DNA of 64,000 nt from Eledone cirrhosa. Its lineage: Eukaryota. The notes below the pieces were generated by a model. The model did not search any database, was not told the DNA's origin, and saw only the letters and a program-made list of their open reading frames with translations. Made by a program: the position numbers and the translations under genes. The stretch spans positions 42,532,001-42,596,000 of the forward strand of contig OZ024743.1 in the NCBI GenBank assembly GCA_964016885.1. Reading direction: 5' to 3'. This document shows, in pieces, positions 7,357 to 61,477 of this stretch; the stretch's first letter is position 1, and every line of letters begins with the position of its first letter.

Positions 7357-7382
<26 letters not shown>

Positions 7383-7394
7383 GTTATTGTTATT

Positions 7395-7481
7395 CCTTGA
7401 ATCTCAGTCATTGATGTTGGTTAACTGGAAAGTCCGTTGGATTGAATATCAAGCCACTACCTGCAGCCTCAGATATTCAGG
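7395..7481 (-). mobile_element. 87 bp 3'-terminal fragment of family B element
   Basis: Identical to the first bases of 7528 onward and bounded by (TAA)n tracts. Confidence 0.9.
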
Positions 7482-7601
7482 TATTATTATTATTATTATT
7501 ATTATGATTATTATTGTTATTGTTATTCCTTGAATCTCAGTCATTGATGTTGGTTAACTGGAAAGTCCGTTGGATTGAATATCAAGCCACTACCTGCAGC
7601 C

Positions 7602-10289: not shown

Positions 10290-10368
10290 CGTATTTGCTG
10301 TTGCTTTGAGGATATTGTTGCACTGGTGAAGACTCCTCGCGTCAAGGTATGGGATGACTTTGTTTACC

Positions 10369-10995
10369 TTAGCTGTTGTTTCTTTTAACTTTTTTCCTGT
10401 CTACAAATCTTAGGTTCATAGGTCTCCCACTATCATTGTTCAACTCATCTACCACTAAATTTAGGATGTCAACCGAATCTTGTCCTAGCCCGTCAGCATT
10501 CATCTCCTCAGTGGCCGTATCTCTGTTCCAGGTATTATTTATCTCAGTATTCAGATCATTGTCTGCTTCGGGTGGTTCCTCCGTTCTCAGGACCTCCTCA
10601 CCTTCATTTCCCGCCGGCTCGCTTGTCTGGCATACTACACCCGCCATCTCCAAGCCATTCTCTCTGCTCAGTTCCTCCAGTTCCAGCTCGCTTATCCACC
10701 CATTAGTTCTTATTACCCGAGCCTGCCCGGCCAATTTTTGTTCATCTAATTTAAATAAACCAATCTCGTTCCAGATGTTATGCATCCGTCTCCTGTAGCC
10801 CCTCTCCTTGGGGTTACTTTTCAGGTAGCATTGCATAACAGTTCTATTCAATTCTTTCGTCCAGTTGGTTCTGGCCCCTTTCCTTCTTCTTCTTCCTCCA
10901 ACATCAGCAGTATTTGGTTGACAGTCAGGTTCCTGCTGCTGAGCCAGGGGGCACCTGTTGGGTGAGAGTCTGTCACATGACGTTCTAGTCTCCAT
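10369..10995 (-). CDS. N-terminal part of the family B ORF (frameshifted from 7602..10289)
   Basis: RTNWTKELNRTVMQCYLKS...YRRRMHNIW resembles the R4-type N-terminal DNA-binding region. Homologous to 16613..17059. Confidence 0.8.
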   Translation of the reverse strand: METRTSCDRLSPNRCPLAQQQEPDCQPNTADVGGRRRRKGARTNWTKELNRTVMQCYLKSNPKERGYRRRMHNIWNEIGLFKLDEQKLAGQARVIRTNGWISELELEELSRENGLEMAGVVCQTSEPAGNEGEEVLRTEEPPEADNDLNTEINNTWNRDTATEEMNADGLGQDSVDILNLVVDELNNDSGRPMNLRFVDRKKVKRNNS

Positions 10996-12063
10996 TTCAC
11001 CGTTATTCGAACTGTTTATGTTCGATATTTAAACACTCTTATCGAGGATTGGCGAATGTATGTTTACATAGCCATCTGTGGATCCGCCATCCCACTTGGC
11101 CCTTGTGTGGCATTATCACCACGCTGTATACGAACACACATAAACAAACAAACACACGGGCAGAAAGGGCCCCAAAAATGAATAAGCATAAGTTTCATTG
11201 TAATGTAGTATTCGAATGTCTGACTTAGTTTTTGTTTTTTAAGTTTTACTTTTTCCCCCCTCTTCTCTGTCCGTCCGCCTGCTTCTCTCTTCATTCTTAT
11301 TTTCATTACGTTTTTGGGGTTTCTTTTTTTGTTTTTGTTTTTCTCTGTTTGTTTTTCTCGTTTTTTGCTGTTGTTGCTGTGCTGCTTTGGTTTTGTTGTT
11401 TGTTTTTTCTTTTTTCTTTTGAGTCTATCTATATATTTTGATGCCTTCCTCTTTGTTAGTAGTAGGAGTTCTATAATGTGGAAGTGGCAGCCAGCAGAGA
11501 CTGGCGGCGTTGGCGATACTGAGACAGTGGTGGTGGTGATGTCGATACCGAGGCAGTGGTGGCGGTGATGCGACCGTATTACTGTAGTGATGGTGCTGTA
11601 GCGGTGGCAGCAGCAGTGAAGGAGTCAAGGGGTGGTGGCGGCGGTGATGGGATAGTGGTGGTAATGATGGCCGTAGTGAGCGGTGGCGGTGAAGGTGAAA
11701 ATGCTGTTGTGTTTAGTGTACACAGATGATGGGGTGGGTGGTGTATCTAGTTTCTGGTGTTGGTGAGTTTAGCTGTCCTATATAGTGTAGCCAGAGGAGA
11801 GGAGGGGGGGGGGGGGGTTCTTCTTCTTCCATTTATAGCCATTTTTTTTTTTTGGATATACAGTGTACAATACAAAGTTGAATATGTGAATATTTGAGCC
11901 TTATAACAATATATTTTGGGTCCGAATTTTTTGGGGCTCAAGCCGGGTGCTTTACGTAGCATTTGTACTAAGAGTTGTTATTTCACAAATGATTTAAATA
12001 TGTTAAAAATTCAAAACTTACGGGAGCGATTTCATGACCTCCGTCACCTCGTGCGTCTTCTTC

Positions 12064-12139
<76 letters not shown>

Positions 12140-12140
12140 G

Positions 12141-13085
12141 TTCTTTGAGTCTCAGTCATTGATGTTAGTTAACTGGAAAGTTTGTTGAAATGAATATCAA
12201 GCCACTACCTGCAGCCTCAGATATTCAGGACGTATCGGAGGGTTCTTGCTGTTCCCAGCAAGCATGCCTTTTGAAGTGTTCAAAAAAGCCGGGCGGGGCC
12301 AATTTTCTTTAACCGTACGTGGAAACTTTTTGAGATAGTACCTAGTGCGCCTATGACAATCGGGACCACTTTGACTTCATGGCAGTTCCAAATCCTTTTT
12401 ACCTGCCACTTTAAGTCCTGGTATCGGTTAATTTTCTCCCTCTCCTTCTCTTGCACTCTCGTGTCGAATGGGCAGGACACATCCACAATCAGGCACGATC
12501 TTTTTTCCTTGTCCAAAACCACCATGTCAGGTCTATTGTGTTCCAGTTTCTTGTCCGTCTGTATCCTAAAATCCCATAGCACCTTCCCTGATCGTTTTCT
12601 ATCACCGACTCTGCCTTATGCTCATACCACTTCTCAGAATCTGGTAAATTGTTTACTTTGCATAGGTGCCAGTGGATCACCCTGCCCATCACATCATGTC
12701 ACCAGCCTTTATAGTGAGTCTGGGCTAGGTGTTTACACTCGGATACAGTGTGACCCACAGTCTCCGCTCTCTCTCTACAGATCCTGTTCAGATGGGCTCG
12801 CCTCTTCCTTGTAAATATGGTGTTTCAGCCACTTCGCTTTGAGGGCCTGCTCTTGCGCAGCCTTTAGCATTCCTTCTGTAGCCTGTTTAAGGTCTCCTCT
12901 TCTCAACCAGTTCCATGTCTGTGGATCTCTGAATTCCATTTTCACAAAGAAGGTACTATGAAGGGATTTTTCATGAAGGTTTCTCTTTCTCCTCGTTGTT
13001 ATTTCCTCCTTGGTCACCCCCTGGTCTATTGTCCTCTCCTTCAGTACAATTCTGAGCATTGGCTCCTTACTATCGGTCACGTATT
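12141..13085 (-). mobile_element. Family B copy B2; 5'-truncated, decayed
   Basis: Homologous to the B1 3' ~950 bp, with frameshifts. (TAA)n flanks. Confidence 0.92.
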
Positions 13086-13108
13086 TATTATTATTATTAT
13101 TATTATTA

Positions 13109-13668
13109 CAGCTGCATTTATCTTGCTTTATGTTCATACGAGTTATCACCAAGTCACAACTAGTGATCTCAAGAGACAACAAGGTCCGCCATGTTCAAGA
13201 AAGAACATACATACTCACACATGCATCTTTAGGTGTTTAGACTTGTGATGTACTTATATTGACAGAATCTTCCTCAGTATATGGGCAGTTCCCATTAGTA
13301 CTATCTTTTGTATTTCTCATATACGCGGGTTTCCTGGGATTTGCGATAAGTAATCATTAGACCCCTTAGGTATCATTCCTAGAGCGCCTACAACCACTGG
13401 TATTGTTTTAGTTCTCAATTTCTACATTTTTCCAATTTCTATCTCCGGGTCCTTATACTTGCTCAATTTTTCAAATGTTTTTGTAGATACATTCTTGTCT
13501 ATTGGAACGGACATATCAACCAGCAGGCATACCCTCTTTTTAAAGTCCTTCAGTATTATATTAGGTCTATTTGCATCTATTTTTCGGTCTGTTTGTATGC
13601 TAAAGTTCCACAAGATTGAGATGTGATATTTTTCAAATATGGGAGGTGGTTGATTCTCCCACCAATTA
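13109..13668 (-). mobile_element. Family A copy A3; 5'-truncated 3' fragment
   Basis: Same 3'UTR as A1/A2 and the WNFSIQTDRKIDANRP endonuclease segment. (TAA)n flanks. Confidence 0.92.
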
Positions 13669-13691
13669 TTATTATTATTATTATTATTATT

Positions 13692-16600
13692 CTTTGAGTC
13701 ATTGATGTTAGTTAAATGGAAAGTTTGTTGAAATGAATATCAAGCCACTACCTACAGCCTCAGATATTCAGGACGTATCGGAGGGTTCTTGCTGTTCCCA
13801 GCAAGCATGCCTTTTGAAGCGTTCCAAAAAGCGTGAAGGGGCCAATTTTCTTTAACCATCCCTGGAAACTTTTTGAGATAGTACCTAGTGCGCCTATGAC
13901 AATCGCGACCACTTTGACATCATGGCAGTTCCAAATCCTTTTTACCTCCCACTTTAAGTCCTGGTATCGGTTAATTTTATCCCTCTCCTTCTCTTGCACT
14001 CTCGTGTCGAATGGGCAGGGCACATCCACAATCAGGCACGATCTTTTTTCTTTGTCCACAACCACCTGGTCAGGTTTATTGTGTTCCAATTTCTTGTCTG
14101 TCTGTATCCTAAAATCCCACAGCACCTTCACCTGATCGTTTTCTATCACCGACTCTGGCGTATGCTCATACCACTTCTCATAATATTGTAAATTGTTTAC
14201 TTTGCATAGGTGCTAGTGGATTACCCCGCCTATCACATCATGTCTCCAGCCCTTATAGTGAGTCTGGGCTAGGTGTTTACACTCGGATACAATGTGAGCC
14301 ACAGTCTCCTCTCTCTCTCACCATAGATCCTGCACAGTGGGCTAGCCTCCTCCTTGTAAATATGGTGTTTCAACCACTTCGTTTTGAGGGCCTGCTCTTG
14401 CGCAGCCATTAACATTCCTTCTATAGTCTTTTTAAGGTCTCCTCTTTTCAACCAGTTCCATGTCTGTGGATCTCTGAATTCAGTTTTCTTAAAGAAGGTA
14501 ATACGAAGGGATTTTTCCTGAAGGCTGCTCTTTATCCTTGATGTTATTTCCTCCTTGGACATCCCCTGGTCTATTGTCCTCTCCTTCAGTACAGTTATGA
14601 GCATTAGCTCCTTACTATCAGTCACGTATTTGTGTAGGTTGTTTTTCTCCATCTGAACACAGTCCTCTATGCTGATAAGACCTCTTCCACCTTCAGATCT
14701 CCTTAAGTAGAGTCTATCGACATCACTCCTCTTGTGGAACATGTTGTAGATAGTCAATAGCTTCCTAGTCTTCCTATCTATTTCTTTTTGTTCAGCAACA
14801 TTCCATCTCAGAATTCCCGCACTGTACCTAATAATAGACACAGCTCGGGAATTTACTGCATTTATGGCATTCCTACTGTTCAGATGTGACTTTAATACGC
14901 TCCTTACTCTCCGAACGTATTCAGTTCTTATCAATTCCTTCATTTTTTTGTTCTTGATGTCATCAGCCTCCAGAACACCCAAATACTTGTATCCTTCTTC
15001 AGTGTTAATTTGCTTTATCATCTCACCTGTTGGTACCTGGATTCCGTTGCTTCTGCTCAATGTACCCCTCTTCATCACAAGGACTCCACACTTACTAATA
15101 CCAAATTGCATACATATATCATTGCTGAAAATACGGACAGTGTCAACAAGGACATCCAACTCCTTCTCACTCTTCCCGAAGAGCTTAAGATCGTCCATGA
15201 AGAGGAGGTGATTGATGGTAAGCCCTCCGTTTCCCAACCTGTATCCTGCTCTCACTTTTCGCAGTATACTGGTCAGGGGTATCAGGGCAAGGACAAACAA
15301 CAGAGGGGACAGACTATCTCCCTGGAAGATACCTCTATTGATCTTCACGCTTCCCAAGGATTCTCCAGTTGATGTTAACTCTGTTTCCCAGGACTTCATA
15401 CTTTTGCCCAACAACTGTCTGATGTTATCTGCCATCTTGAAGAACTCCGGGCTTTTGGTGATCCAAGAATGAGGCACCATGTCAAATGCTTTTTGTAGTC
15501 TATCCATCCCATGACAAGACCAGTGCGTCTCCTCTTGCAATTCCTCATTACCATCTTATCAATAAGTAACTGGTCCTTTGTACCACGGGATTCTTTCGGC
15601 ATCCTTTCTGTTCGTCCGGTAACAAGTTCTTTGTGTGGACGTGATGGTAGATTTCCTCAGACATAATGCTTGTCAACAGTTTCCACATTACGGACAGACA
15701 TGTGATAGGTCTATAGTTGGTAACATCATTACCCCTGATTCGGTCTTTCATTATCAGAACTGTGGTACTTTTTGTCAACCACTCTGGTACCTCACCTGAC
15801 ATCAAGCAGTCATTGAACATGGTTGTCAGTTTCGGGTGGAGGGATGTTATATTTTTAATCCAATACCCCTGCACACCATCTGGGCCTGGTGATTTCCAGT
15901 TGGTTAGTTTTTTGGCCTACCCTTTAAGAGTTTCAACTGTGATACTCAAATCAGTTTGTTGGTGTGCCTGTTCACTAATCTCCTTCTGTACTGTCTCAAT
16001 CCACACTGCCTGGTCATTATGTTTAACATCCTGCTTCCATATTCCTCTCCAGAATATTTTAGTTTGTTCCGCCTCAGGGATCAAGTCGATACCTCTTTCT
16101 TTCCCTTCAAGCTGTCCAAACAGCATCTTCTGGTTGTTGTCAAACATGCGGTTCTGTTTATACTGACTGACTCTGTTCTCGTATCGCCTGATGTTTGCAC
16201 TCTTTGCTACAATGCGTTGCTTCAGTTCCTCTATCATAATATTTAGCTTTTTCCTCCTAGTTTTGTACTTTATTTCCAGTCTACTTTTAGTGTCTATGTT
16301 TTTTAGTGTCCCATTCAGTAGGGACTCAAGATTTCCGATGTCATTTCTCATTTCCCTGATTTGACCACTCAGTCGTTTCTTCCAACAAGGCTCTGATCTT
16401 TCTTATTTGTTGTTTCCTCTCGCTTTGATACCAAGTAATTTCCTCACCGTATTTGCTGTTACTTTGAGGATATTGTTGCACTGGTGAAGGCTCCTCGCCT
16501 CAAAGTATGGGATGACTTTGTTTACCTTAGCTGTTGTTTCATTTAACTTTTTCCTGTCTACAAATCTTAGGTTCATAGGTTTCCCACTATCATTGTTCAA

Positions 16601-17645
16601 TTCATCTACCACTTAGTTTAGGATATCAACCAAATCTTGTCCTAGCCGGTCAGCATTCATCTCCTCAGTGGCCGTATCTCTGTTCCAGGTATTATTTATT
16701 TCAGCATTCAGATCATTGTCTGCTTCGGATGCTTTCTCCGTTCTCTCGATCTCTTCGCCTTCATTTCCCACTGGCTCAGTTGCCTGGCATACTCCGCTCT
16801 CCATTTCCAAGCTAATCTCTCTGCTCAGTTCCTCCAGTTCCAGCTCGCTTATCCACCCATTAGTTCTTATTACCCGAGCCTGCCCGGCCAATTTTTGTTC
16901 ATCTAATTTAAATAGACCAATCTCGTTCCAGATGTTATGCATCCGTTTCCTATAGCCTTTCTCCTTGGGGTTACTCTTCAGGTAACATTGCATAACAGTT
17001 CTATTCAATTCTTTCGTCCACTTGGTTCTGGTCACTTTCCTTCTTTTTTCCTCCGACACCAGCAGTATTTGGTTGACAGCCAGGTTGCTGCTGCTGAGTC
17101 AGGGAGCACCTGTTGTGTGAGAGTCTGTCATATGACATTCTAGTCTCCATTTCACCGTTATTCGAACTGCTTAGGTTCGACATTTAAACACTCTTATCGA
17201 GGATTGGCGAATGTATGGTTACATAACCACCGGTGATTTTTGTGTGGCATTATCACGCTGTAGACGAACCCAAATAAACAAACAAACAAACAGGCAGAAA
17301 AAAACCCAAAAATGAATAAGCATAAGTTTCATTGTAATGTAGTGTTTGAATGTCTGACTTAGTTTTTCCCTTCCCTTTTCTGTCCGTCCGTTTGTTTTTC
17401 TCTTCATTTTTATTTCCTTTACATTTTTCGTTGTTGCTGTGCTGCTTTGATTTTAATTTTTGTTTTTTTTTATTTTGACCGGGCCATCAATTCAGTCTAT
17501 TTATATATTTTGATGCCTTCCTCTTTTAGTGAGAATTCTACACTGTAGCAAGGGCTAGCGGGAGAGAATAGCGGCGGTAGTGACACTGAGGCAGCGGCGG
17601 CGGCGGCGATGGCGGTGCTGTGCTAGCAGCAACTAGCAGGAGGTA
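13692..17645 (-). mobile_element. Family B copy B3; near full length, decayed
   Basis: Colinear with B1 through the ORF and most of the 5'UTR, with stops and frameshifts. (TAA)n flanks. Confidence 0.92.
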
Positions 17646-20329: not shown

Positions 20330-20660
20330 CTGACATTACATTGGATCCACTGCGGGTTCTTTTAAAATAAGATGGTATGTGCACAGGAACTCGATGAAAA
20401 ATCGTGCACTCATGGGTTCCACAACCCTCGCCAAAAAAATATGGGAACTGAAGGACAACAACACTAACTACAGTATTAACTGGTCGAGGTTGTCGGCTGA
20501 TAAAACCTATAGTACAGGTATGTCCCACTGCGGGCTATGTGATCTAGAACTAATGTATATCCTTAAAAATGTGAAAAGGCTACTTAACAATAAGCTAGAA
20601 AGATCTATCTTCTGCAGACATAGAATTGCCACTAAATTCATAAGATTCAAACCTCCGTGA
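20330..20660 (+). pseudogene. PLE GIY-YIG endonuclease C-terminal fragment
   Basis: STTLAKKIWELKDNNTNYSINW...CGLCDLELMYIL...LLNNKLERSIFCRHR matches the typical PLE tail (IW.LK...C.LC..E...LLN.R.E....CRH). Confidence 0.8.
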
Positions 20661-22164: not shown

Positions 22165-25100
22165 CTACAGGATGGTATACAGAGAAGGCCCATTTACACG
22201 AGCCATTCTCGCCACTATCACCCACCTTTCATAAAACTGCCTGTGGCCAAGCACCTCTCTCTCCATTCTTATCCTTCTTCCGAAGTGATATCGGAAGAGG
22301 TAGACCAGACTATGGCCAGAGAGGAAGTTGCCTGACCTCAGACCTTTCAATCGTGTCCACCAAACAACCTCTTTCAACATGGCTATTACGCACAGAAAAA
22401 CCGCCTTTGCTTCCTTTGTGAAGAGGGGAGGCGGTTTGATTGTCATCACGGATTCGGCGGTCAATTGAATCGGCGCCACCCGCGACAGCAGTTGTTCGGC
22501 GTAGCCCCACAGATCAGCCACGCCCGGACATTGCACCAATGCGTGCGCAACGGTTTCTTCGTGACGCACGCATCTAGGGCAAATCTTTTTTGAGGGATCC
22601 CTGCCCGGGCGCCCGTGTCTGTAGAGCCTCTCTCGAACGGGTAGAGCCCCCCGGTAGCACTGCCAGGCCAGTGACTTCTGGAAGTTGTCCATTGGTCCTG
22701 GGCCGAAAGTCCTACCGAACAGGCTGGCCAGTTCGTCTTCTTCCATGTCCAGCGACCCTCCAAGGGTGTCATCGCCCCTGCTAGCCACCAGCCCTCTATA
22801 GAATGATGAGGTGGTTTCTCTACCGATGGCCTGGCCCGCTTGCCAGAGAGCCCTGAGCGCCTGAGCACACTCAGTGTGCCAGTCTCCCAGTTTTCCGGAT
22901 CTTTGCTTGACCCAGGACTGTAGCTCGGTGAGCGAAACGAGTCTCGGAAAGGCTCGTTTCACGAACGGAGCCCACACCGGTTGACCAGTGAGGAATACCT
23001 GTAGGTGCCGTAGCCTTAATGCGTGCCTACGCATCATCAACCACGGCATCCCCAGCCCTCCTTTCGAAGGTTGTTGGCAGCAGATGGATCTTCTCACCAT
23101 AGGAGGGCGCTTCTTCCAAAGAACTTGGAAGAGCATGCGTTCCATGGTGGTGAGTGTTTCCTAGGGCAAGGCACGACAGTCAAGCGGTAGTAAGTGACGG
23201 ACGCTATGTAAATGTTCGCCACCTCCGCCCGGCCTTTTAGGGACAGATTACACTTGGCCCATTTCTGGGTTAGTGCAAACACCGTGTTCGTAACCTCGTT
23301 CCAGTTCTTTTCCACCTGGAGGTCCGGTCCAAACCAGACCCCAAGCAACTTTACCGGGCCCTCCGTCCAGTGTCCGACGACACCGTCAGGAGGCATCGGT
23401 CTGCCTCTCCACGTTCCGAGTTGCAGCCCGATGGATTTTTCCCGGTTCAGTTTCGCTCCTGACAACCTTTCGTAATCCTCCAGTAAGGTACCGATCGCAT
23501 CGATGCCGAGTCGGTCGATACCATTACTGTTACGTCATCGGCGTAGGCCGACACCGCTTTGCTCAATCCTGGTTCCAGGGGGATACCCTGCAACAACTCC
23601 AACTTCCTCAGTAAAGGCTCGAGAGTCAATACGTACAGATGGGAGGAGAGAGGGCACCCCTGTCGAATGGATCGTTTGATTTCGAACGGCTTCGAAAGGT
23701 AGCCGTTCACCTTGATCCTAGAACAGATGTGGTTGCTATGTAAGGCAGTGATCCAGCCTCCATAAACAGGACCGAACCCAGCCGCCGCTAGCACCGCATC
23801 CAGGTAACCATGGTCGACCCTATCGAAGGCCTTAGACTGATCCAAGTTGATCAGGGCCCCACCGAAGCCGGGTTTGTTGCCAACCCTCTCTATGATGTAT
23901 CGCATGAGGTGGAGGTTATCGTGAATGGACCGGATGGGATAGCACATGTCTGCGCATCTCCCACCAGGCCACCCACGACAAGCGCCAACCTCTTTGCTAA
24001 CACCTTGGCCAAAATCTTTAACTCTGCGTTTAGCAGGGTTATGGGCCGAAAATTATTTATACTATCTCCCTTGTCTCGTCCTTCCTCACCAGCGTGACTA
24101 CGCCCTTGGCTACAGAACAAGGAATTCTCCCGTTCTGCTGCCAATTGTAGTAGACCGCTTCGAGGAGTTCGGAGAAGAAGACCGACATTGCTAAATAAAG
24201 TTCGTAAGGTATACCATCGAGACCTGGAGATTTGCGTCTGCTGCATTGGCTCAGCGCATCTCCGATCTCATCAGCCGAGATTGGTCCCTCGCAGGACTCT
24301 GCCTCTTCGCTCGAGAGACGCGGACCCTCGCCTCCCCCGAATAATCGGGCAAAGTGCCTTTGAAAGGCCTCGCACATCTGCTTAGGCTCCCGGATCACCC
24401 GTCCATCTTCGTCTTGCAACGACCGGATGGTGGATCGATTTCCACTCTTAGCTTCTGTCACGCGGGCCCAGCCAACGGCTTTGGTCCCCTCATTACCTAG
24501 AGCACGTATTTTACTTCGAATGACGCAGCCTTCGTGCTTTGCATCGAAAAACTGGTTCAAGGCCGTCCTCGATGCCAGCACTCTGGCCACATCTTCGCTC
24601 TTGATTGCCTCTTCTAATTTACCTGTTAATTCTTTCTCGTTTCTATTCCTATCGGCAGCTAACATCTTGCTATAACTTATTGATTCTGTTCTAATCTCTC
24701 TTTTGAGAGATGCCCACCATCGGTTGTTGACGATTGCACCCGTCAACCTCTCCTTAACTAATCTGCTAATCCGGTTTCTGTAAGTCTCTTTTGCCGGTAA
24801 AGACAAATTAAGTTTCCAGTAACCGGGACCCTGTTTATGTGTTTTCTCGAGATTGACTACGCAGGTCACTAATTTGTGATCCGTGTAGCCCACCGTGCGC
24901 ATTTCTGGACAGCTTAATATATCCCTATCCTTTCTTCTAACTAAGAATCTATCTAAGTACGATCTAGATTGACCACTGTGGTTTCTCCAAGTCTAGGTAG
25001 GCACAGTTGGAAAATCTAGTCGATATCTATAGACCAAGTTAAAACGGTCGAGTAACCCCTTGAGGCTGTTACACCCCCTCTATTAGGACATGCTCCTGCA

Positions 25101-25555
25101 TAGTCCCAACGTGCATCTAGGATGTCATTCCAATCCCCCGCTAGAAGCAGGGAACGCGACGTTCCCAGAAAAGTCTCCAAACGCTGGAAGAAGTCGGGCC
25201 GTTCAGCTCCGAAAGGGGAGTAGACGGCGACCAGTCTCAAGGCCGCACTTTCACTACTGCCAACGTCTAGCACCAACAAACGACCCTCCGAGTCCGAGTG
25301 CACAACCTGTACGGCAAGACCCAGGTGTTTTTGCAGCAGTACGACAACCCCACCCCCACCTCCAGGTTGTCAGAGAGATGCATGCACCTCAAAGTCATCG
25401 AAGGTGGGGGCCAGCTGCCGCACGACGCTGATTCGAGTCTCACAGATAACCATTACATTTATACTACATGACCTGAGGTCATTTAGAAGCTTTGCTTGCT
25501 TCCAAGTTGAGCCAAGGCCACGTGCATTCAGACATCCTACTCTTAACACATCCAT
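22165..25555 (-). pseudogene. Tx1-like ORF2 (APE-RT-zinc finger), broken into at least 7 frames
   Basis: Consecutive ORF pieces 25370..25555, 25016..25303, 24057..24902, 23447..23947, 23094..23465 and 22165..23145. Confidence 0.9.
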
Positions 25556-25588
25556 GTGGGCGGCAGAGCCAAAGGAGAGTGTAGAGAC

Positions 25589-26875
25589 CTACCTTTCCGC
25601 TTCCCGGGGTTCGGGTTGCACGACTTCCATGGGGTCGGGGGTGTTGGGTGAAGGAGTGTCTTGTGGTGGTGTGGGGTCGTCAGTGTGTGGTGGGGTTGGG
25701 GTGTTTGGAGTTGTGTTGGGGAGGGGAAGGGGAGGGGGAAAGCTTTTTAGTAGGACGCGGTTTATGGGTTTGACAGAGGGTGGTCCTACGTCCTCCTTAA
25801 AATCCTTTTTTAGTTTTTGGTAGAGGTTCATTGGGATCTTTATTAATTTTAAATGTGGGTAGTTTTCTGAAGAAACAAAGTTTACACCTTCGGTTTGTAC
25901 CGAAGGATTATTGTATATGAGTTCATTTAATTTATTATTGTTTCTGTTGATGTAAGTATAGTGTAATGTCTTTTTTTCGGATGGTGTGAGTGTTTCGAAG
26001 AGGGGAGGGGCAGGTTTGGATTTGTTTGTTGCTGGAGGGGTGTTTTCTGTTTTGTTGGATTGTGTTGAGATTTGGGTGGGGGTTGTTTGGCTTTGTGTGT
26101 TTTGCAAATGTTTTCTTTTTTTCCTTTTAATCTGTCTGAAGGACTCCGTTTCTTCCTCCGAATTCGTTGGGTTATCTTCAGTGTTGGAGGGAAGAGGTAT
26201 GTTTGCTGGTAATGTTTCCATGTTGGTTTTCTTTGTGGGGGAGATGGATGTCACTATGTTAGACTGTGTTGTGTGTTGTGTCTGCGGTGGTTGTGTTGTT
26301 CTATTGAGTGAGAGGTTGGGTGGGCCTGTATTTTGTTTTGGGTTAAAGTGTTGTGACTGTTTGTGTTGCGGTGGTGGTGTGGTTTTACTGAGGGACGGGT
26401 TGGGTGGGACTGAGTTTTGTTGTTTGTTTATCTGTTGTGGTGGTGGTGGTGATGGAGCTGGTGTTGGTAGCAGGGTTTTCTTTTTGTTGAGTTGGGGACA
26501 AGCGGCCTTCAGGTGCCCTCTGCCTGCACAGATATGGCAGGACGGCCTTCTCCCCTCCACGCTAATGTTTATATACCCGTGGCCCTCTAATAGGATTCTG
26601 TCGGGTATTTGGGCGATGCGTTCAGGCTTCATTTGCACTACCAGCTCTATACCTGTTCCACTGAACGCATTGCCTGTGGTTTTCCCAATGGAAATCACGT
26701 TGTCATTCACTGGATCGATGAAGCCAGCTATGAGCCAGCAGTAGTCCACATCTGGCATCATTGCATCCAGCCATATGCGTTGAGTTCTTTTACCCATATA
26801 AGATGGATAAAAGGTAAAATTTTTCGAACGAATCGGTGACAAAGCACATTTTTTTGCCGCCGATTCGTTCTTCAT
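25589..26875 (-). CDS. Tx1-like ORF1 (gag-like CCHC knuckle, Pro/Thr-rich tail); N-terminal pieces at 26911..27521
   Basis: VEGRRPSCHICAGRGHLKAACP motif, located directly upstream of ORF2. Confidence 0.8.
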   Translation of the reverse strand: MKNESAAKKCALSPIRSKNFTFYPSYMGKRTQRIWLDAMMPDVDYCWLIAGFIDPVNDNVISIGKTTGNAFSGTGIELVVQMKPERIAQIPDRILLEGHGYINISVEGRRPSCHICAGRGHLKAACPQLNKKKTLLPTPAPSPPPPQQINKQQNSVPPNPSLSKTTPPPQHKQSQHFNPKQNTGPPNLSLNRTTQPPQTQHTTQSNIVTSISPTKKTNMETLPANIPLPSNTEDNPTNSEEETESFRQIKRKKRKHLQNTQSQTTPTQISTQSNKTENTPPATNKSKPAPPLFETLTPSEKKTLHYTYINRNNNKLNELIYNNPSVQTEGVNFVSSENYPHLKLIKIPMNLYQKLKKDFKEDVGPPSVKPINRVLLKSFPPPLPLPNTTPNTPTPPHTDDPTPPQDTPSPNTPDPMEVVQPEPREAER

Positions 26876-27791
26876 GATAATTGCTAGGCTTCCATACAGT
26901 CTGTCTTTTCTTATGAAAGTGGTTTCATTAAGTACTTCTGTGAGTACTGTTTTGATATCTGCTTGAGAAGGCTGTTCAGGTTTTTTGTACTGTTGTTGAT
27001 GGTGCGGAACTTGACCGTTCGGCTTTCAATGTCTTTGGTGAATTCTTGAGGCATTTTTACCGATAAAATACCATTCTCTCCTTCACTTATGTATTGTTTG
27101 GCGTCTGTGTTTCTTCGTGCCACATCTGAAATATTTTCCGGTATATAAGTCAAAGATTTCTTTGTTGTCTGTGCAAATGAAATCTTGTCGTCTGCTTTGC
27201 TTTCTGTTATGGTGTTATTTTCAAATGTTATTTTTGTGTTTGTTGTGTCTTTGTTTGTGTTATTAGTATTGTCATGCAATTTTTCAAATTTATTTTTCCG
27301 TTGTTGGAATCCATGTCCAGATTTGTGTTTTCGTCATTTTTTTTCTCCGCAGATTCGTCTGTTTTTATTTTTATTTTTCCTTCCTTCTCTATGACGTTAG
27401 TGAGGAAGGAAGGGGGGACTAAAGCGTGCGAGCTTACAACTCTTACGGCTGTCCCCCCACCACTATTTCCGTTCGCTGCGTTTAACATTTCTGTTAGACG
27501 ATTGAAATTTGTTTGCCACAAAATTTTTTAAAACAGGTTTTTCACCTCTAGGAGGGGTAAAGATGAGCTGACCCACCACCTGACAGTTCAGACGGGGGGT
27601 CAAGCTACACAATTGTATCAAAATTAAATTTGAACTCACAAAATTTCCGCAATAAATTTGAACAAAACTTCTGCGCGAAGTGAATTACATCCACACTGTA
27701 GAACAGACGACAGCTAGATTACATATAGATAGATAGATAGATAGATAGATAGGTAAATATACACGGGTGTGTATGATTGTGTATAGAAGAT

Positions 27792-29558: not shown

Positions 29559-30902
29559 TTATATATATAAAAGCTAGGATGTGTGTGTGTGTGTGTGTGT
29601 GTCTGTGTACAAATTTGCATGCTTAAGGTTTTCACAATTGCCAACTGAATTTGACCAAATTTTCTGTACACGTTGCACAGGTCGCTAGGTTTGTCACATT
29701 TTTCAAATCGACCCACATTGAGCAATAAAAAAATCGATATCAAAATTATCGGTAGAAAAACTGATGTAAGGTAGATAACAAACTTTATGGACAATCCTTA
29801 TAAAAAAGGGAGATAACCAACTTTTCAGAGATATAAACATCACATTCATTTGAAGATAAATCACTAATATTATCGTTTGTTTCTTGTTTATTCTTTGTTG
29901 CACTTTCAAAGTTAAAAAACACTTGTTGTTTTAACTTGTTTCACTATATTAAGTGTTAATTTTCGCATCACCGTTGGCTGTATTAACGATCAGCTTCTTC
30001 AGCTTCTTCCTGGATGTCCACGGATATATAAATCTATTGATACTGTATGTGATCCACAGGATGCGGTCAATTATCCAGTTGAATTTCGAAATTCTTTAAA
30101 TCCTCCTGGTTTACCTCCTAATACATTGGTTCTGAAAGAGGGAACACCAGTTATTTTGCTGAGAAATATCACTCCTCCAAAACTATGCAATGGTACACGC
30201 CTTGTGTTTAAAAAAACTGTCTCCACTTAGTATTGACGCTACTATTCTATCCGGATGTGGAAAAGGCGAGGATGTGATAATGACAAAAATTAGCCTGACT
30301 ACATCAGGCGTGGATACTCCCTTCTCCTTTCGCCGACCCCAATTTCTCCTTCGTGTTGCCTTTGCAATGTCCATAAACAAGTCGCAAGGTCAAACTCTGT
30401 CCGTCGCTGGAATTCACTTGGATGAACCTAACTTTTCGCACGGACAATTCTACGTTGCCTGCTCACGAGTTGGCAGTCGAGATAATCTCTTTGCGAAAAG
30501 AAAAACAAAGAATATTGTCTATCCTGAAGTGCTTTAGTGTTAACAAAAACACTTATTACAGCTCTGTCTTGACTTCACCTTACTCATTACAAAACATACC
30601 AATGAATATGTCATGCAGGATATTTTGGATTATAGGTTAAAAATTTCACCATACACAGCAAAGGACGCTCTCAAAGAATAGATTTCTCTTATTCTATTCT
30701 CATTGTTTTTTTTGTTTGTATACAACTCTGCTTTCATTGCAACTTTTTCTACTTTAGCAAGACTGCCTTTTTACAGATTTTCAACGTGTATTGTCTTTAA
30801 TTATTTGTATAATTACATCCTGTTCAGTGTTTTCTTTTACTTCCTAGCTGTATATTCTTATCATAATTTCAAACCCCGAGCAACGCCGGGTAAATCTGCT
30901 AG
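29556..30902 (+). mobile_element. Internally deleted Helitron carrying a PIF1 helicase fragment
   Basis: 3' end CCCGAGCAACGCCGGG hairpin followed by CTAG|T, with helicase motifs inside. Confidence 0.88.
30030..30537 (+). pseudogene. Helitron PIF1-family helicase C-terminal fragment
   Basis: LNPPGLPP...LLRNITPPKLCNGTRL; AFAMSINKSQGQTL; FSHGQFYVACSRV; TKNIVYPEVL. Confidence 0.9.
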
Positions 30903-34973: not shown

Positions 34974-35093
34974 TTGTTTATTGTTTTTCTCCCGAGAAAA
35001 TAATAAAAAATAATATGATTTTTATGTTATAGAAACTGTATAAGTTGGTTCAGTATAAAAGTAGAATTATAATTTAACTTCAAAATGACAGTA

Positions 35094-35945
35094 TACGAGG
35101 TGTGTCCGAAAAGTTCCAAGACTGATGTCACAAAAGATTTATTTCAAACCCAAACTTCACACTAAGAATGTTCTCCTTCAAAGTAATCCACCTGGAGTAT
35201 GTACCTGTAATCTTAGCTCTCTGCAGCGAGCAAACCTTTTTCTTCATAATTTTATATACATGTCCTCCATTTCAGGTCGTCAAGCAATGAACACAGAGCA
35301 ACGAACAAACTTGAAGTTCCTGGTACGTTTGGGGGAAACTTCGTCAGAAGCACTGGGATTGCTGCAGCAAGTGTATGGAGATGAGACGATGTCACGATCA
35401 CGTTATTTTGAGTGCTGCAAGATGACCCCAGCAGCGGAAGGCCCTCAACAACCAGGACTGAGGTCAACGTTGAGCGCGTCAGGCAGATGGTGCGTAGCGA
35501 TCGTCGGCTGACTGTTCGACTGATGGCAAATGAGCTGGGCATGAATTGGGACAGCGTCTGGAAGATTCTCACTGAAGATTTGGACATGCGGAAAGTCTGC
35601 GCGAAGATGGTGCCAAAACTGCTGAACAATAACCAGAAGGGTCGACGCATGCAAGTATGCCAGGACATCCACGAGCGTCTTGAAACCGAACCAGACTTGC
35701 TAGGGACAGTCATCTCCGGGGACGTTTTGAAGGCGTGGATGACATCAAAAAGGCCTTGACGACGGAACTACGGAGGATCCCGGAATAATCCTTCTAGGAG
35801 TGCATGCAAGCGTGGCAGAAAAGGATGGAAAAGTGCATTAGATTCCAGGGGGATACTTTGAAGGAGAAAACTGTTTGTGTGAAGTTTGGGTTTGAAATAA
35901 ATCTTTTGTGACATCAGTCCTGGAACTTTTCTGACACACCTCGCA
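35094..35945 (+). mobile_element. Internally deleted mariner transposon with ~68 bp TIRs and TA target duplication
   Basis: TA|TACGAGGTGTGTCCGAAAAGTTCC...GGAACTTTTCTGACACACCTCGCA|TA. Transposase N-terminus (EQRTNLKFLVRLG; DDPSSGRPST; KVCAKMVPKLL; VISGD) is fused to the C-terminus, with the catalytic middle missing. Confidence 0.93.
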
Positions 35946-51441: not shown

Positions 51442-52148
51442 ATATTTGCTGCATTGACTGTTTTGAAGTTCAATAATGTTATTAAATATTTCTTATGTTC
51501 GATTGTTGATTCCATATTTTATTGTTGTGTTGCTGCATTTAGCTATATAAATGCAGTATACATTGTTTTGATATCCAGGCTCTTTTCATGAATACTATAT
51601 AGAATAGTAGTGTTTTCAACTAATATGTTCTTTGGGTCAGAAGATGAAGCCAGGTATATAGAAATGTTTGACTCAAAAATATTATTTTTCCATAATAAAC
51701 ATAATGAAGTATTGGCAAATAAGGAATCTAAAAATCGGAAACTGTTATGCATAAATAATCAAAGGCGCCAGTCGTTACTTCAGACCAGGGCAACAATGTT
51801 GCCATTGGTCTTTCCATTCCAGATATTATCTGGCGTACACACCTGGTACTAAAATGAGGCAGAATTTGAACAAAGGACTCATTGCGCCCGGTGATTGCTA
51901 TCGAGATAGTGTAATCAAACCTCTATCGACTCTGTCATATATATATATATATATTAAATTAGAAAGTGAAGAACACAAAATATAACTACTACATTACCAA
52001 AGGTTTCTGGATCCCAGAGAATATTAATATACGTCTGAATGGGCCAGGACCGATATTATATTTTGTGTTGTTCACTTTTAATTAAATAGCTCTGTTCTAT
52101 ACATAGAGCACTCCTTTTTCCTTGGTTTTTCCTTCAGAATCACCTAAA

Positions 52149-52181
<33 letters not shown>

Positions 52182-52533
52182 AAGAATCAGTATATCTAGT
52201 AACATATATATACACACAGATGCATACTTATGCTAGCAAATATATAGGTTTTGTCTTAGTAACTTTGCGGTTCAATGCATGGGGTTGCAGAACAATAATA
52301 TGAGAGACGTAAAATAAGAAAATTATAAAATTAACTTATTTACTAAAATTTCACTCCCAACTAATTAGTTTCTGAAGGGGATTGATTCTTTTGAATTTGC
52401 CACCGACGCAGTAGGCAGTGATTTTCTCAGTGGCTAGGAATGTAGACCACGCTTTGCTTTTTTCTATCCACTGAATTATTTTTGTATAAGTTCCCAGTGT
52501 CCACGTATTGCCTGGAAACTTAGCTGAGAATAG

Positions 52534-52616
52534 ACTTCCCTGATGACGAAAGGCTTCTCTGTACACATCTTCGGAAAGTATGTTTATTCCCTTTCAGAAA
52601 CTAATTAGTTGTGAGT
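52534..52616 (+). ncRNA. Type I hammerhead motif, copy 1
   Basis: ACTTCC-CTGATGA-C-GAAAGG...CCTTTC-A-GAAA-CTAATTAG-TT-GTGAGT. Confidence 0.65.
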
Positions 52617-53058
52617 GAAATTTTAGTAAGTAAGTTAATTTTATAATTTTCTTATTTTACGTCTCTCATATTATTGTTCTGCAACCCCATGCATTGAACC
52701 GCAAAGTTACTAAGACAAAACCTATATATTTGTTAGCATAAGTATGCATCTGTGTGTATATATATGTTACTAGATATACTAATTCTTTATAATTATCTCC
52801 AAATTATTTGTCGAGCAAAATTGGCCAAGACTGCTGCTATGGTAACAGTCAGGCTGCTGTCTTCTTAACAAACCACTTTCCACTAATTGACCTCGATGTC
52901 ACGTGATTGATTCTTTTGAATTTGCCACCGACGCAGTAGGCAGTGATTTTCTCAGTGGCTAGGAATGTAGTCCACGCTTTGCTTTTTTCTATCCACTGAA
53001 TTATTTTTGTATAAGTTCCCAGTGTCCACGTATTGCCTGGAATCTTAGCTGAGACTAG

Positions 53059-53141
53059 ACTTCCCTGATGACGAAAGGCTTCTCTGTACACTTCTTCGGA
53101 AAGTATGTTTATTCCCTTTCAGAAACTAATTAGTTGGGAGT
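53059..53141 (+). ncRNA. Type I hammerhead motif, copy 2
   Basis: ACTTCC-CTGATGA-C-GAAAGG...CCTTTC-A-GAAA-CTAATTAG-TT-GGGAGT. 6 bp stem I, 6 bp stem II base, palindromic stem III. Confidence 0.72.
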
Positions 53142-53187
53142 GAAATTTTAGTAAGTTCATTTTATAATTTTCTTATTTTACGTCTCT

Positions 53188-53281
<94 letters not shown>

Positions 53282-53972
53282 TATGTAGTGGATGTATGTG
53301 TGTGTATGATCTGTTTATATGTGTGCATTGTGTGTACGTTCAATGGAAAGATTACTTGATTAATTCCAACAAAATTCCAACAATCAACAATAGTAAATCT
53401 CATAACTGTACTAATGTAAGTGAACCATAATATGAAATAAATAAGTGTAAGACCAATAGTAATTGGAGACGATTCTAGAAGCGATAGTTCATCACACTTG
53501 TGGATTCTCGAATGAATTGAATTAGCTATGCTGCACCATTATATACAGTATGTTGTAGTGTCAGCGTTCTTCTATGGAATTCATTGGATGTGGGTGGGTA
53601 GTAATGTTATTTACTTGTGTTGGAGACAGGGTGGTTTTATTAATTAGCAAGTTGTCTTATCAATAAGAGAATAATAGAATAATACATATAATAGGGAGAC
53701 ATTAATTGGTAGGATGTAAAAGGGGGAAATAAGGTAATAAAAAAGGGGCCGAATATACGGTTCGTTGATAGATTAATATTGGTAATATCAAAGATGTCTG
53801 TTTATACATGTCCCAGGTGGAACCAGAATTATTTGAATGGTTCCAACCCTAAGGGGCATGGTATCAATTTCTCAAAAGTGTGGTCTAACCGCAACAACAT
53901 CGCATACACACACATATATACCTCTACGTACGTACATACAGATGCGTACATATACAGATACACACATATATT

Positions 53973-54054
<82 letters not shown>

Positions 54055-56453: not shown

Positions 56454-58307
56454 TATTCTGTGGTGACAGTCAAATTTGCAATGTTCAACTGTAATGAGAT
56501 GGGTAAATTGTGTGCCTTTATATACAGTGAAAAGCGGCTACAGGGTGCTAAATTTTGCAAACTGTATTTCGACCAATCAGTGTGTAGTTTGACTCGATTA
56601 CTAAAGCTGATTGGTTTAGGTGTCACGGTTGGTTGAGCATGTCTAACTACTACTATCCAAAGCATCAATTGTTTTGCTATTTTTAGAAATGATGAAAATA
56701 GCATTTTCTTGTAATCATCACCATCAACATCACTTTTATTATTATTATTGTTGTTGTTGTTGTTGTTGTTAGTGGTGGTAGTCGACATGACATGGTCGTA
56801 GTCATAGTCATAGTAGGAGTAATAACCCAATATTATTGTTCATTTAGCTTGGGTTTGAATTTATCAATAAAATTATTTTCTTTGATTTTTCTCTTGATTT
56901 CACCTGGGCTGTGTAATTTGTAGAATGGAAATATTATAAATATTCTCTGACCACATGTTGCTAGTTGGTTACTCAGGGGTATCTGACGGACATTTGGGTC
57001 TCCGATTTGCTGTCGGTGCACCCGTGCACGTTCCGATAGTGCATTTCCAGTTTAACCGACATATAGTTCTTCACAATTAGGGCATTTAATGCAGTAACTT
57101 AGATTTCTGCTTTTCCAGTTTATATTTGCATTTGGGAATATTTCTCCAGTTTTTGTGTTCATATATTGACCGGTGTGTATGGATTGACATGTGCCACATC
57201 GACTATCATTGCATTTAGATACAGTGAATGATTGGTCTTTGTTGTTAAAGACAAACTTTGCTTTTGTTAGTAATTGCTTTAAATTTTTCGGCTGTCTTTT
57301 AATAAGAGTCAAAGATCGGTCTATGATTAAGCCTTTTAATTCATTACTTTGATCAATGATCGGTAGGTTTGCTTTGACAGTGTTGAAGATATTCTGGTGA
57401 CATGGGTTGTGTGTCATTATACATGGTATGACCAGTTCTTGGTTTCCTCTTCCTTGGGTTGTCCTAAGTTGTTGTATAGGTATTTTTATAGCCTGCTGTA
57501 TGCCATTTACTATAAGTAGAGCTGGGTATTTTTGTTTGAGCAAAGATTCTCTCAGTTCTGTGAGGCGTTTGTTCCTGGTATTTGTATCTTCTACAATGGT
57601 ACAAATTCTTCTGGCTAGGCAGTATGTGATGTTGCGTTTTGTATGAGGTGGATGGCACGACTTAAACTTCAGATATTGATGGGTGTCTGTATGTTTATAA
57701 TATATATCCGTGGTAATGGTGGTGTCGATTTTCATTACCATTATATCTAGGAATGGTAAGATGTACTACTCATTGCTTTTGTGAATTGGAGAGATGGGTG
57801 TAGGTTATTCAGGAGGATATTGAACTTATCCAGAGTATCTAGACATTCTATCCAGATGATGAACCAATCGTCAAGCTATCTCTTCCAAGATTTGTCAATG
57901 TACTTTCTAAAGTCAGTGCTATATTTTCCTCTATTTCTTGGTAGAGTTGTTGTTCTAAGTATCCCATTACAGAGTTCACGTAAACGGGAGCAAACTTCGT
58001 TCCCATCGCTGTGCCTCTAATTTGGATGTAATTCTTTCCATTGAAGAAGAAAGTGTTGTTTTCCAGAATAAGTTTGACTGCGTCTAATATAAATGGTGCT
58101 GTGAATCTGGTGGGAATCACTTCTCTATGTTTTTCCACCAGTATTTAACCGCCTTTATTCCTAAATCATGTGTAATGTTGGTGTAAAGGCATACCACATC
58201 AAAACTAAGTAGAAATGAATTCGTTTCCGTGGTTTTGGGAAGATTGGACAGGAAGTCGATATCATCCCGGATGAAACTGGGTATGTGAATACATAGTGGT
58301 TTCAAAA

Positions 58308-58481
58308 TAATTGTTTCTACTTTTGGCACAAGGCCAGCAATTACCTATTGCATTACTGATACTTTATTTTATCCACCCCGTAAGGATGAAAGGCAAAGTT
58401 AACCTCGGCGGGATTTGAACTCAGAATGGCAAGGGCCGTAACACTATGCGTCAAAGCAGTCGTCCAACTCTGTACCGATGT
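58308..58481 (-). mobile_element. SINE inserted into the PLE RT domain
   Basis: The SINE sequence interrupts the THRLSNF...IILKPL reading. Confidence 0.88.
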
Positions 58482-59410
58482 CACAAAATTGCTTAGACGG
58501 TGGGTAAGGCATGTTGGACCAGCTATAATAGGTCTAAGTTTTAAGTATTTTGGGTGTTGTAATTTAATGTACTCACTGTTTTGTTCTTATACTGCCAGTT
58601 GTATTTTTTTTGACATATGAACTTTCGGTAGGCCATACAGGTTGCTGGGTTTTGGCTCAAAATTGGTGATGTAGTCTCTTTCCTTATCAATAAGTGAGTT
58701 GTGGTATTTTGAAGCCAGGTTGTTGATCTTCTTCATGATTTTGTGGTCTATAGTTGTCGGTATTTCATGATAGAATGTTGTGTCTTTCAGTTGTTCCTCA
58801 ACCAAATCTTTGTAGTACTCAGCATCCATTATAACAACTGCACCTCCTTTATCTGCTTGTTTAATTATTATTGTTTTATCATTTTGTATACGTTTAAGTG
58901 CAGACATTTCTGATTTGTTAATGTTTGGCCTAACATTAGTATTACGTCTAAGAGAAAATTTAGGCAGGATGTCAATATATTGGTCGAGATAGATATTTCT
59001 TCCTTTTGGCGGATTGAAATTTGATTTATTCTTTACTAGTGATTCATCACTTTCATTACTTTTATCATCGAAGAATTCTATAAGTCGTAATTTTCGACAG
59101 AATTCTTGGGTATCCTCCTTCAGTTCTTGGTGGTTGGAGTCGGTGTGAATTTCAGTCCTTTTGACAGAATTTGCAATTCATCATTGTCAAGATCTATTTT
59201 GGATAAATTAATTATATGTATGTATATATATATATATTGTTATACTTTGGGAGAGTCATGTTGCAAATAAGAAACACACGCACCAGTTGCTTTCCTTCAA
59301 TTTATTATGAATTTTATAAATATAAATTTCATAAATTTTATAAACACACGTTTTCATATAAAGAATCTTGCTAAACAAATTCAGAAATACAAAATATGAG
59401 GAAATAATAG

Positions 59411-59484
<74 letters not shown>

Positions 59485-59520
59485 GTGTTTTGTAGCTTAC
59501 TTAACCCATTGTTTGATTGG

Positions 59521-59744
59521 AAACACAAAGTTTAGTGTTGAGACCAACACAATGGTTATGAAGAATGATAAAATTACCAAGATAAGAAAAGAATCTTACC
59601 ATAGCAAATTTAACGATCGGGTTTTTAAACCCGAAAATATTTGGGATCGTTAAATTTGCTATGGTAAGATTCCTTTGTTATCTTGACAATTTTGACAATC
59701 TTCATAACGCATTGTGTTGGTCTTCAAATTTAAATTTGTGTTTC
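59521..59744. repeat. Inverted repeat (~100 bp arms) with the 3' half of a hammerhead as spacer
   Basis: ...AAATTTAACGATC-GGGTTTTTAAACCC-GAAA-ATAT-TT-GG-GATCGTTAAATTT... Confidence 0.8.
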
Positions 59745-59904
59745 ATATATATATAAACAAAGAAGGTCTGGTAAGATACGAGATGGACCATAAGACACCA
59801 GAGTACTCGATACTTCGGCTAGTAGAGTGGCTAGTATGAAAAGATTCAGGACCTTGACGGCTGAGCTCGGGCCGTTGAAACTCAGCCATCAGGGTCTTGG
59901 GTCT

Positions 59905-60589: not shown

Positions 60590-60828
60590 ATAATTGTTTC
60601 TACATTTGGCACAAGGCCAGCAATTATTCCAGTGTATTACTGGTACTTTATTTTATCGACCCCGTAAGGATGAAAGGCAAAGTTCACCTCGGCGGGATTT
60701 GAACTCAGACCATAAAGGGACGTAACTCTTTGCTGCAAAGCATGGCGTCCGACCCTCTACCAATACTGCCAATCCACCGCCCTACAAATAATTGTTTCTT
60801 CATTTGGCACAAGGCCAGTAATTACCCA
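60590..60828 (-). mobile_element. Full SINE (60590-60782) plus an adjacent SINE 3' fragment (60788-60828)
   Basis: Same SINE family. Confidence 0.88.
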
Positions 60829-61327
60829 GATGATTGTTCATATATTGTCAAAGTTCTTTCGTCACACATTATGTGACCTCTTCAGAGACTGGGGATTCTT
60901 TTCTTTCTTTTTTGTGCCTCTCCTTTGTTCTGTCCTACGCCATCTTGTTTTTGTGTGTGTTGTGTGCTTAGTTTGCGCATGTGTTACATCCGGGTGTCTG
61001 TGTGTGTTTATATTTGTTTATGTATTTGTTTATTTACATGTTACTGGTTGATTGTTTGTTCTATGTGTGTGTGAGTTTTCATTTTGCCTTTAATTGTAAG
61101 TTGTGATGTTGCTGTTACATTCATGTTTTCTATTTAATTTGGTTGGAGTTCATTTATGTTTATTGCCTCTGTGATTTGTCTAAACATTGCGTCTTTTCTG
61201 TGTGTAGATTCTATTTAGAACAGAACAAAGGAGAGGCACAAAAAACAAAGAAAAGAATCCCCAGTCACTGAAGAGGTCAAAGAATGTGTGACGAAAGAAT
61301 TGTGACAATATATGAACAATCATCTGG
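60827..61327. repeat. Inverted repeat (~110 bp arms), each arm with a hammerhead motif (60847-60889 minus, 61264-61306 plus)
   Basis: GTCW-CTGAAGA-GGTCA...TGAC-GAAA-GAAY-TK-TGAC in both arms. Confidence 0.78.
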
Positions 61328-61477
61328 TTGTAGAACCAACCAACCAACCGGAAATTTATAAATTCCTAAATTTATAAATTTAATTTATAATATATTGAAG
61401 TGAAAGCCTCTGGTGCGTGTGTTTATTATTGGCAACATAACCCTCCCAAAGTATAACAATATATATATGTATATGTA

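Follow-up and report, generated by a model that had tools for sequence, protein, structure and literature searches.

A non-coding hammerhead-motif repeat in Eledone cirrhosa, probably pasted into a TA microsatellite by a Penelope-type retroelement

Animal non-LTR retrozymes are described as non-coding units with a GC content below 50% and a type I hammerhead motif per unit, which occur in multiple head-to-tail copies with autonomous Penelope-type elements (PLEs) nearby and are proposed to be moved by PLEs (PMC7229834; 10.64898/2026.07.22.740005). The reported units measure 150–450 bp in PMC7229834 and 51–972 bp in the 2026 preprint (10.64898/2026.07.22.740005). This kind of element is already known, with both the animal retrozymes and their proposed PLE origin in print. 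In the papers cited here, the case for their movement by PLEs is built on ribozymes held in common, co-occurrence, and phylogeny. For cephalopods, octopuses included, no description of a retrozyme family was found in the literature searched; cephalopod motifs may be present in the supplementary alignments that accompany PMC4209133 and PMC7229834, and the giant squid genome paper only counts 235 Rfam hammerheads.

PLE insertions, as described, combine partial tandems with an inverted truncated copy next to them, a tail of 30–40 bp, and a bias toward microsatellites (PMC8557442). In one rotifer case, unrelated cargo is enclosed by pseudo-LTRs, two of them direct and one inverted, and was mobilised in trans (PMC3846280). 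A purified lizard PLE protein makes nicks in the two strands of AT-rich DNA and initiates copying within the RNA, at two positions that mark the limits of the tail, mostly on RNA that the ribozyme has left uncut (PMC11167929). Traits of PLE hammerheads are one additional base that separates positions 9 and 10.1, a pair G10.1-C11.1, a helix II of greater length, and a helix III that is palindromic and through which they are described to work as dimers; their activity in vitro is low (PMC4209133).

Within a 64-kb window of the Eledone cirrhosa genome (GCA_964016885.1, contig OZ024743.1, positions 42,532,001–42,596,000 of the forward strand; all coordinates below count from the first base of this window), an insertion of ~1.0 kb was identified that consists of three pieces between two microsatellites. 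It is best explained as one aged insertion of a multi-copy, non-coding 525-nt repeat with a hammerhead motif, and this repeat was likely a non-autonomous passenger of the animal retrozyme type that a PLE pasted into a TA microsatellite. The direct part extends over 812 nt, equal to 1.55 units of 525 nt arranged head-to-tail, with a full turn (unit A, 52380–52904, + strand; 35.8% GC) followed by a 0.55 turn (unit B, 52905–53191, +) that ends 56 nt past the second predicted cut site. Across the shared stretch (52380–52670 and 52905–53191, spacing 525), 281 of 291 positions are identical (96.6%, E = 3.6e-137). The initial annotation, made from the sequence alone, had described a non-coding direct repeat and a tandem 525-nt unit; the direct repeat, its non-coding character and the spacing all stand, and the tandem amounts to 1.55 units instead of two. 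To the left lies an inverted, 5′-truncated copy (52178–52381, −) that retains the 3′ half of the hammerhead and the tail and has its 3′ end toward the left microsatellite. It matches unit positions 52588–52791 at 199 of 204 bases, and an ungapped repeat search extended it to 52173/52796 (209 nt, 52173–52381). This copy had been reported to break inside the 3′ strand of stem II; it is present, with its start at unit position 52588, 2 nt before that strand.

The inverted arm and unit A meet head-to-head with an overlap of 2 nt (52380–52381), a microhomology, such that both outer ends of the insertion are 3′ ends and lie on (TA)n. The inverted arm reaches 121 nt past the end of unit B, and this 121-nt tail (52671–52791, +) is present in unit A and in the inverted arm and missing at the right end. 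Part of the tail is predicted to form a 23-pair hairpin (52725–52778, +; z −2.18, 6 of 200 shuffles equally good), the best of the five stretches folded and a candidate recognition site for a reverse transcriptase. Twelve identical bases flank the two ends (52166–52177, +, within (CA)n(TA)n, and 53192–53203, +, continuing into (TA)48) and are a candidate target-site duplication, though of low complexity and maybe a matter of chance. The target is AT-rich and microsatellite at both ends, an agreement of small weight because microsatellites are common in the window.

The unit is devoid of recognizable coding capacity, with no coding frame in its circularised form (longest ATG frame 34 codons, either strand) and no coding relic in any of the six frames. 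No tRNA gene occurs in 51500–54000, and so there is no sign of a tRNA-SINE head. The repeat search recovered no further copies of the 525-nt unit within the window; TRF, as used here, stops at period 500 and says nothing on a 525-nt period. Upstream of hammerhead 2 lies a series of words that we take to be promoter-like motifs (52820–53014, +), with a putative ATTGG at 52820, an X-box-like word at 52837, CACGTG at 52900, and TATAA at 53010, of which hammerhead 1 retains TATAA (52485) alone. Separately, splice-donor-like words occur directly past the cut site (52611 and 52626), with a possible acceptor near 52736, all putative; a 5′ intron is frequent in PLEs (PMC2377424).

Two direct copies with an adjacent inverted truncated copy and a one-sided tail, as in PMC3846280 and PMC8557442, point to an insertion of the PLE type. 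The likeness to endonuclease-bearing PLE insertions (PMC3846280; PMC8557442; PMC11167929) extends from the direct repeats and the head-to-head inverted truncated copy to the one-sided tail, the AT-rich or microsatellite target, and ends that fall past the cut site. The inverted arm, which had been treated as a mere side feature, is instead the mark of Penelope-type integration, an insertion signature that the initial annotation missed. Unlike an autonomous endonuclease-bearing PLE, the locus has no RT or GIY-YIG frame between its direct repeats, and its tail measures 121 nt compared to 30–40. MRC1 of Chlamydomonas and other Chlamys PLEs that are non-autonomous are similar in being ORF-less, with pseudo-LTRs and head-to-tail insertions, but are green algal, mostly lack canonical hammerheads, and have 3′ ends that resemble those of their autonomous partners (PMC8557442).

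Compared with animal non-LTR retrozymes, the unit shares the non-coding sequence, the low GC content, the type I motif, and the multi-copy head-to-tail arrangement, and at 525 nt it is longer than the range of PMC7229834 and within that of the preprint. It differs in that the locus holds only 1.55 units with two motifs, one of them with a stem I mismatch, and in that its ribozyme resembles those of PLEs and is unusual in its long stem II, the extra C and A at the base of that stem, and the GUU triplet. The inverted arm and tail are a further difference: the word ‘inverted’ is absent from the main text of PMC7229834 and was not noticed in the retrozyme preprint from abstract to discussion (10.64898/2026.07.22.740005). 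The target-site duplications of retrozymes exceed 4 bp when present, compared with the 12-nt candidate within a microsatellite here. A plant LTR retrozyme, which would have type III hammerheads within its LTRs and a duplication of 4 bp, was also considered and rejected, given the type I topology and the animal host.

Using public sequencing runs, it was possible to explore whether the unit occurs elsewhere. Four of the 13 listed runs (X1, X4, X5, and X11) were aligned to unit A at 80% likeness, and runs X6–X10, with small shares, were left out; the best run contains 0.47 of the sampled words, so the runs may come from a relative and not the same species. The initial annotation had counted a lack of other copies among the observations that would speak against its reading, and other copies are present: 2338 contigs of X1 match the unit, 488 of them at ≥99% likeness (counts not convertible to copy number), as do 7316 of 12,467,656 reads of X11 and, in two other organisms, 75 contigs of X4 and 15 of X5. 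The 525-nt unit is a multi-copy repeated family. Pattern scans of metagenome contigs and viral contigs returned 0 loci.

The head-to-tail joint (52904→52380) was covered by 311 X11 reads with 49 starts and also by contigs of X1 and X5, and the cut site was bridged by contigs of X1 (52545–52666) and X4 (52508–52641). The seam at 52796/52797 was bridged by one contig with at least 31 letters on each side (X5, 52711–52863, depth 3) and by three shorter overlaps of 13–17 letters in X1 and X4. With joint, cut site, and seam all bridged, the unit appears continuous all round in the family, and it is this continuity that tells a non-coding repeat unit apart from two truncated pseudo-LTRs paired by chance. 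Because the unit is multi-copy, its head-to-tail joint recurs, and none of the 24 loose ends listed of 364 leads into a reading frame, it fits an animal non-LTR retrozyme, which supports the retrozyme-like character first proposed for it. No contig among the 24 pieces listed of 2443 holds the whole unit, and a link into a reading frame may hide among the remaining loose ends or pieces.

Strand-switch joints comparable to that of the insertion occur at other loci, at 52413/52568 (18 reads, 3 starts) and at 52669/52788 (1 contig), the latter within 1 and 3 nt of the two ends of the insertion. Common variant letters, as judged by eye from unphased variants, would create or preserve pairing in stem II (52552/52591 and 52565/52578) and in the tail hairpin (52733/52770), which is a lead only. 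Two sister subfamilies were noted among the 24 loose ends listed of 364, one behind 52536 in which the core is kept and stem II is different (805 X11 reads), and one behind 52739 whose version of the tail hairpin is richer in GC (373 reads, with further instances in X4 and X5). Pile-ups of X11 read ends were considered as ends of the element and rejected, since five of the six listed are on AATT words (52474, 52606, 52645, 52784, and 52802), which are read as library restriction sites; the sixth, at 52441, is without AATT.

The three pieces of the insertion likely derive from one template, as they have rare variants in common. Of the polymorphic sites listed, 20 of 23 have the same letter in units A and B, and 13 of 15 have the same letter in unit A and the inverted arm. 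The shared letters include two that are rare in the family, G52430 in both units and G52701 in unit A and the arm, from which 98% and 99% of X11 reads, respectively, differ. Where the pieces disagree, unit B or the arm carries the common letter and unit A an uncommon one, suggesting that unit A changed after insertion, including at T52612 in stem I. The one-template argument is weaker if the species of the runs differs, as the shared letters could then be species-specific.

The initial annotation had reported two co-oriented hammerheads 525 nt apart. The motifs were confirmed, hammerhead 1 at 52518–52630 (+) and hammerhead 2 at 53040–53158 (+), and the positions given for them (52534 and 53059) correspond to the outer ends of stem I. 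The CUGAUGA cores start at 52540 and 53065 (52540–46 and 53065–71) and the GAAA strings at 52597 and 53122 (52597–600 and 53122–25). A purpose-built type I descriptor, tuned to the motif, found only these two sites on both strands of the window, compared to a mean of 0.05 and a maximum of 1 in 100 block-shuffled windows. Stem II has 6 pairs (52548–53 with 52590–95) that enclose 36 nt (52554–52589, +), the most variable stretch of the ribozyme among copies, predicted to form a hairpin capped by cUUCGg, and at its base C52547 stands opposite A52596. Under constrained folding, a second helix lengthens stem I in what is predicted to be a two-part extended stem. The 6-pair stem I of hammerhead 2 is intact, while in hammerhead 1 C52538 is opposite T52612, a mismatch at the second stem I pair that affects monomer and dimer folds alike and is private to this copy (G in 33 of 34 raw reads, in copy B, and in the inverted arm). 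An alternative hammerhead through a GAAA inside the stem II insert was dropped by eye, having no stem I partner and no response from the descriptor.

The insert and the C-A opposition had been taken as a 36-nt addition and a C-A pair that made activity uncertain; both are present, but the insert is a predicted hairpin and C52547 can be read, by analogy with PLE hammerheads, as the additional base that falls between positions 9 and 10.1, after which comes the canonical pair G10.1-C11.1. The adjacent A52596, an extra A before GAAA, remains non-canonical. A natural U-U mismatch has been reported at the 10.1/11.1 position (PMC3088659), and nothing relevant was found in the literature on C-A at 10.1/11.1. 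This arrangement looks like a family trait and not decay, as neither base falls within the listed variant rows (40 of 184) and the sister subfamily keeps the C. The extra base, the G10.1-C11.1 pair, the longer helix II, the palindromic helix III, and the low expected activity are all shared with PLE-type hammerheads as described in PMC4209133, from which the motif differs in its extra A between 11.1 and G12 and its 36-nt distal stem II hairpin, while the predicted extended stem I is nearer to canonical type I ribozymes than to those of PLEs (PMC4209133).

Rfam gave no hammerhead family for the whole window at gathering scores and no hammerhead for 52150–53200 at E up to 10; the miRNA, lncRNA, and snoRNA matches were far under their cut-offs and were rejected. 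Unconstrained folding did not yield the active hammerhead, and folding of the hammerhead regions showed no gain over shuffled sequence (z +0.4 to +1.7). Stem III (52599–52610) is a perfect 12-nt palindrome with a predicted energy of +1.5 kcal/mol as a hairpin and −9.0 kcal/mol as a duplex between ribozymes. Over 52512–53161, the folds reach −136.8 kcal/mol for the dimer, −129.9 for two monomers, and −149.4 for the free fold, and the predicted probability of the active fold is ~1e-4 or less for hammerhead 1 and 2e-3 to 6e-3 for hammerhead 2. GUU is cleaved more slowly than GUC, and the predicted cuts fall after GUU at 52610 and 53135. The activity of the ribozyme is probably weak and would be greatest in a dimer formed through the 12-nt palindrome.

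The insertion may have formed as follows. A source locus would have been transcribed through more than one unit, and a PLE protein made elsewhere would have nicked AT-rich DNA on both strands and begun reverse transcription from two internal sites of the RNA, 60 and 181 nt past the cut site. The longer cDNA would have run 812 nt across both ribozyme sites and the other would have stopped after ~204 nt, and their truncated ends, joined through the 2-nt microhomology, would have left both 3′ ends facing outward. Both cut sites lie within the longer cDNA, so a linear monomer left by cleavage cannot have served as its template, which would have been either uncut multimeric RNA or a circle copied more than once. 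Uncut multimeric RNA is favoured and seems somewhat the better prospect, and such a circle, as modelled in PMC4209133 and PMC7229834, is a substantial though lesser possibility; the insertion locus alone cannot separate the two. The copy looks decayed since its insertion and would probably yield little monomer, if any, and no host function is indicated by the data here.

Several observations weigh against the explanation by a PLE-pasted passenger. Within the 64-kb window there is no autonomous PLE that shares the repeat, the tail is 121 nt instead of the usual 30–40, and the free fold lies well below both active folds, with Rfam giving no match. The 52796/52797 seam is on one fully bridging contig, from another organism, and the target duplication is of low complexity. 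Still, a retrozyme-type unit with a PLE-style inverted arm, tail, and microsatellite target provides modest structural support for PLE-driven spread, and the two candidate priming sites and the hairpin are now named and can be tested with purified PLE protein. A bolder version can be stated, in which this is the first cephalopod retrozyme family, with the PLE having copied one RNA circle for 1.55 turns, plus 0.4 turn on the other strand, from two priming sites that flank a conserved hairpin at a distance of 121 nt from each other, and with the ribozyme, an atypical hammerhead with a long stem II, cutting at GUU as a dimer. Taken whole, it is rather unlikely; if its circle-copying were true, insertions would directly record what co-occurrence and trees have argued.

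The passenger reading competes most closely with a stump of an autonomous PLE, in which the locus would represent two 5′-truncated pseudo-LTRs in partial tandem with an inverted copy and there would be no independent family. The architecture would be identical, truncated PLE insertions are the common case (PMC8557442), and the summed contig depth peaks at 52614–52811 and is lowest at 52830–52865, as 5′ truncation predicts. A stump, however, needs one locus-specific seam in the 525-nt circle, and both candidate seams recur in other copies. The long agreeing loose ends (52536 and 52739, among the 24 listed of 364) are by eye diverged versions of the unit's own stem II and hairpin and not coding. 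None of the six frames of the unit holds a remnant of coding sequence, and tblastn finds nothing in common with the local PLE relic. The stump is accordingly judged an unlikely account, and a retrozyme-type passenger the better one.

Considerably less probable is the case made by the initial annotation, that the insertion locus is itself transcribed and cut at both hammerheads, giving a 525-nt circle. Both cores are intact and 525 nt apart, retrozyme circles have been shown in coral, mussel, and axolotl (PMC7229834), and GUU is a cleavable triplet (PMC3138052). However, a circle from this locus is unlikely, and probably does not form, given the private stem I mismatch beside cut site 1 and the predicted pairing of hammerhead 1 with the inverted arm, which in a read-through RNA would sequester 28 of the 29 bases of the hammerhead's 3′ half. 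Unit A would also lack most of the upstream promoter-like words, the circular fold (57% paired) reaches a z of only −1.7 against 40 shuffles, and just one of nine frog dimers was cleaved in vitro (10.64898/2026.07.22.740005). Younger copies may make circles, a tentative possibility. Least probable of all is a dispersed repeat with a dead hammerhead that DNA repair or replication slippage duplicated and inverted in place, with no reverse transcription, which would suit the microsatellite-rich, rearrangement-prone context, the junction microhomology, and the lack of Rfam support, but not the recurrence of the head-to-tail and strand-switch joints in other copies, the two outer 3′ ends set on (TA)n, or a second outward-facing hammerhead-like inverted pair in the window.

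A decayed PLE is located 3.6 kb from the insertion (about 56830–59340, −), with an RT, a C-X4-C-X2-C linker as in Neptune or Nematis elements (PMC8557442), and a GIY-YIG domain, interrupted by several frameshifts and stops. Its relatives carry GIY-YIG, and its best homologue is an Octopus sinensis protein (73%); Pfam left the fragments unnamed, and they were identified by Atlas and homologue searches. The relic demonstrates that PLE enzymes existed in this genome, and with no similarity between the 525-nt unit and the relic or its hammerhead-like repeat (repeat search and tblastn), and hence no common sequence, it is not shown to be the partner of the unit. A short repeat that interrupts the relic near 58310–58470 and recurs in the window is presumably SINE-like.

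The second inverted pair has outward-facing hammerhead-like cores at 60885 (−) and 61268 (+), within 60826–60937 (−) and 61216–61438 (+), as part of a 112-nt inverted repeat (94%). One portion (61352–61438) matches 59258–59338, directly upstream of the PLE relic, at 83%, and the pair is therefore likely the pseudo-LTR of the relic's family. These two cores, and isolated core-like strings at 56448 (−) and 61659 (−), failed the type I descriptor. Other mobile elements were recognized by eye across the window. A co-oriented cluster of non-LTR retrotransposons (683–17100, −) contains an RT and a restriction-like endonuclease end, with two frames of 877 and 932 codons, and a frameshifted, more GC-rich LINE (22165–27025, −) has an upstream ORF, an endonuclease, and an RT of Tx1/L1-like appearance. 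Smaller fragments include a GIY-YIG piece of another PLE (20334–20660, +; no Pfam match), a PIF1-like helicase fragment that appears Helitron-like (29916–30537, +), and a mariner transposase fragment (35089–35759, +). Lastly, an imperfect palindrome of ~240 nt with a MITE-like appearance lies between TA runs at 59520–59760.
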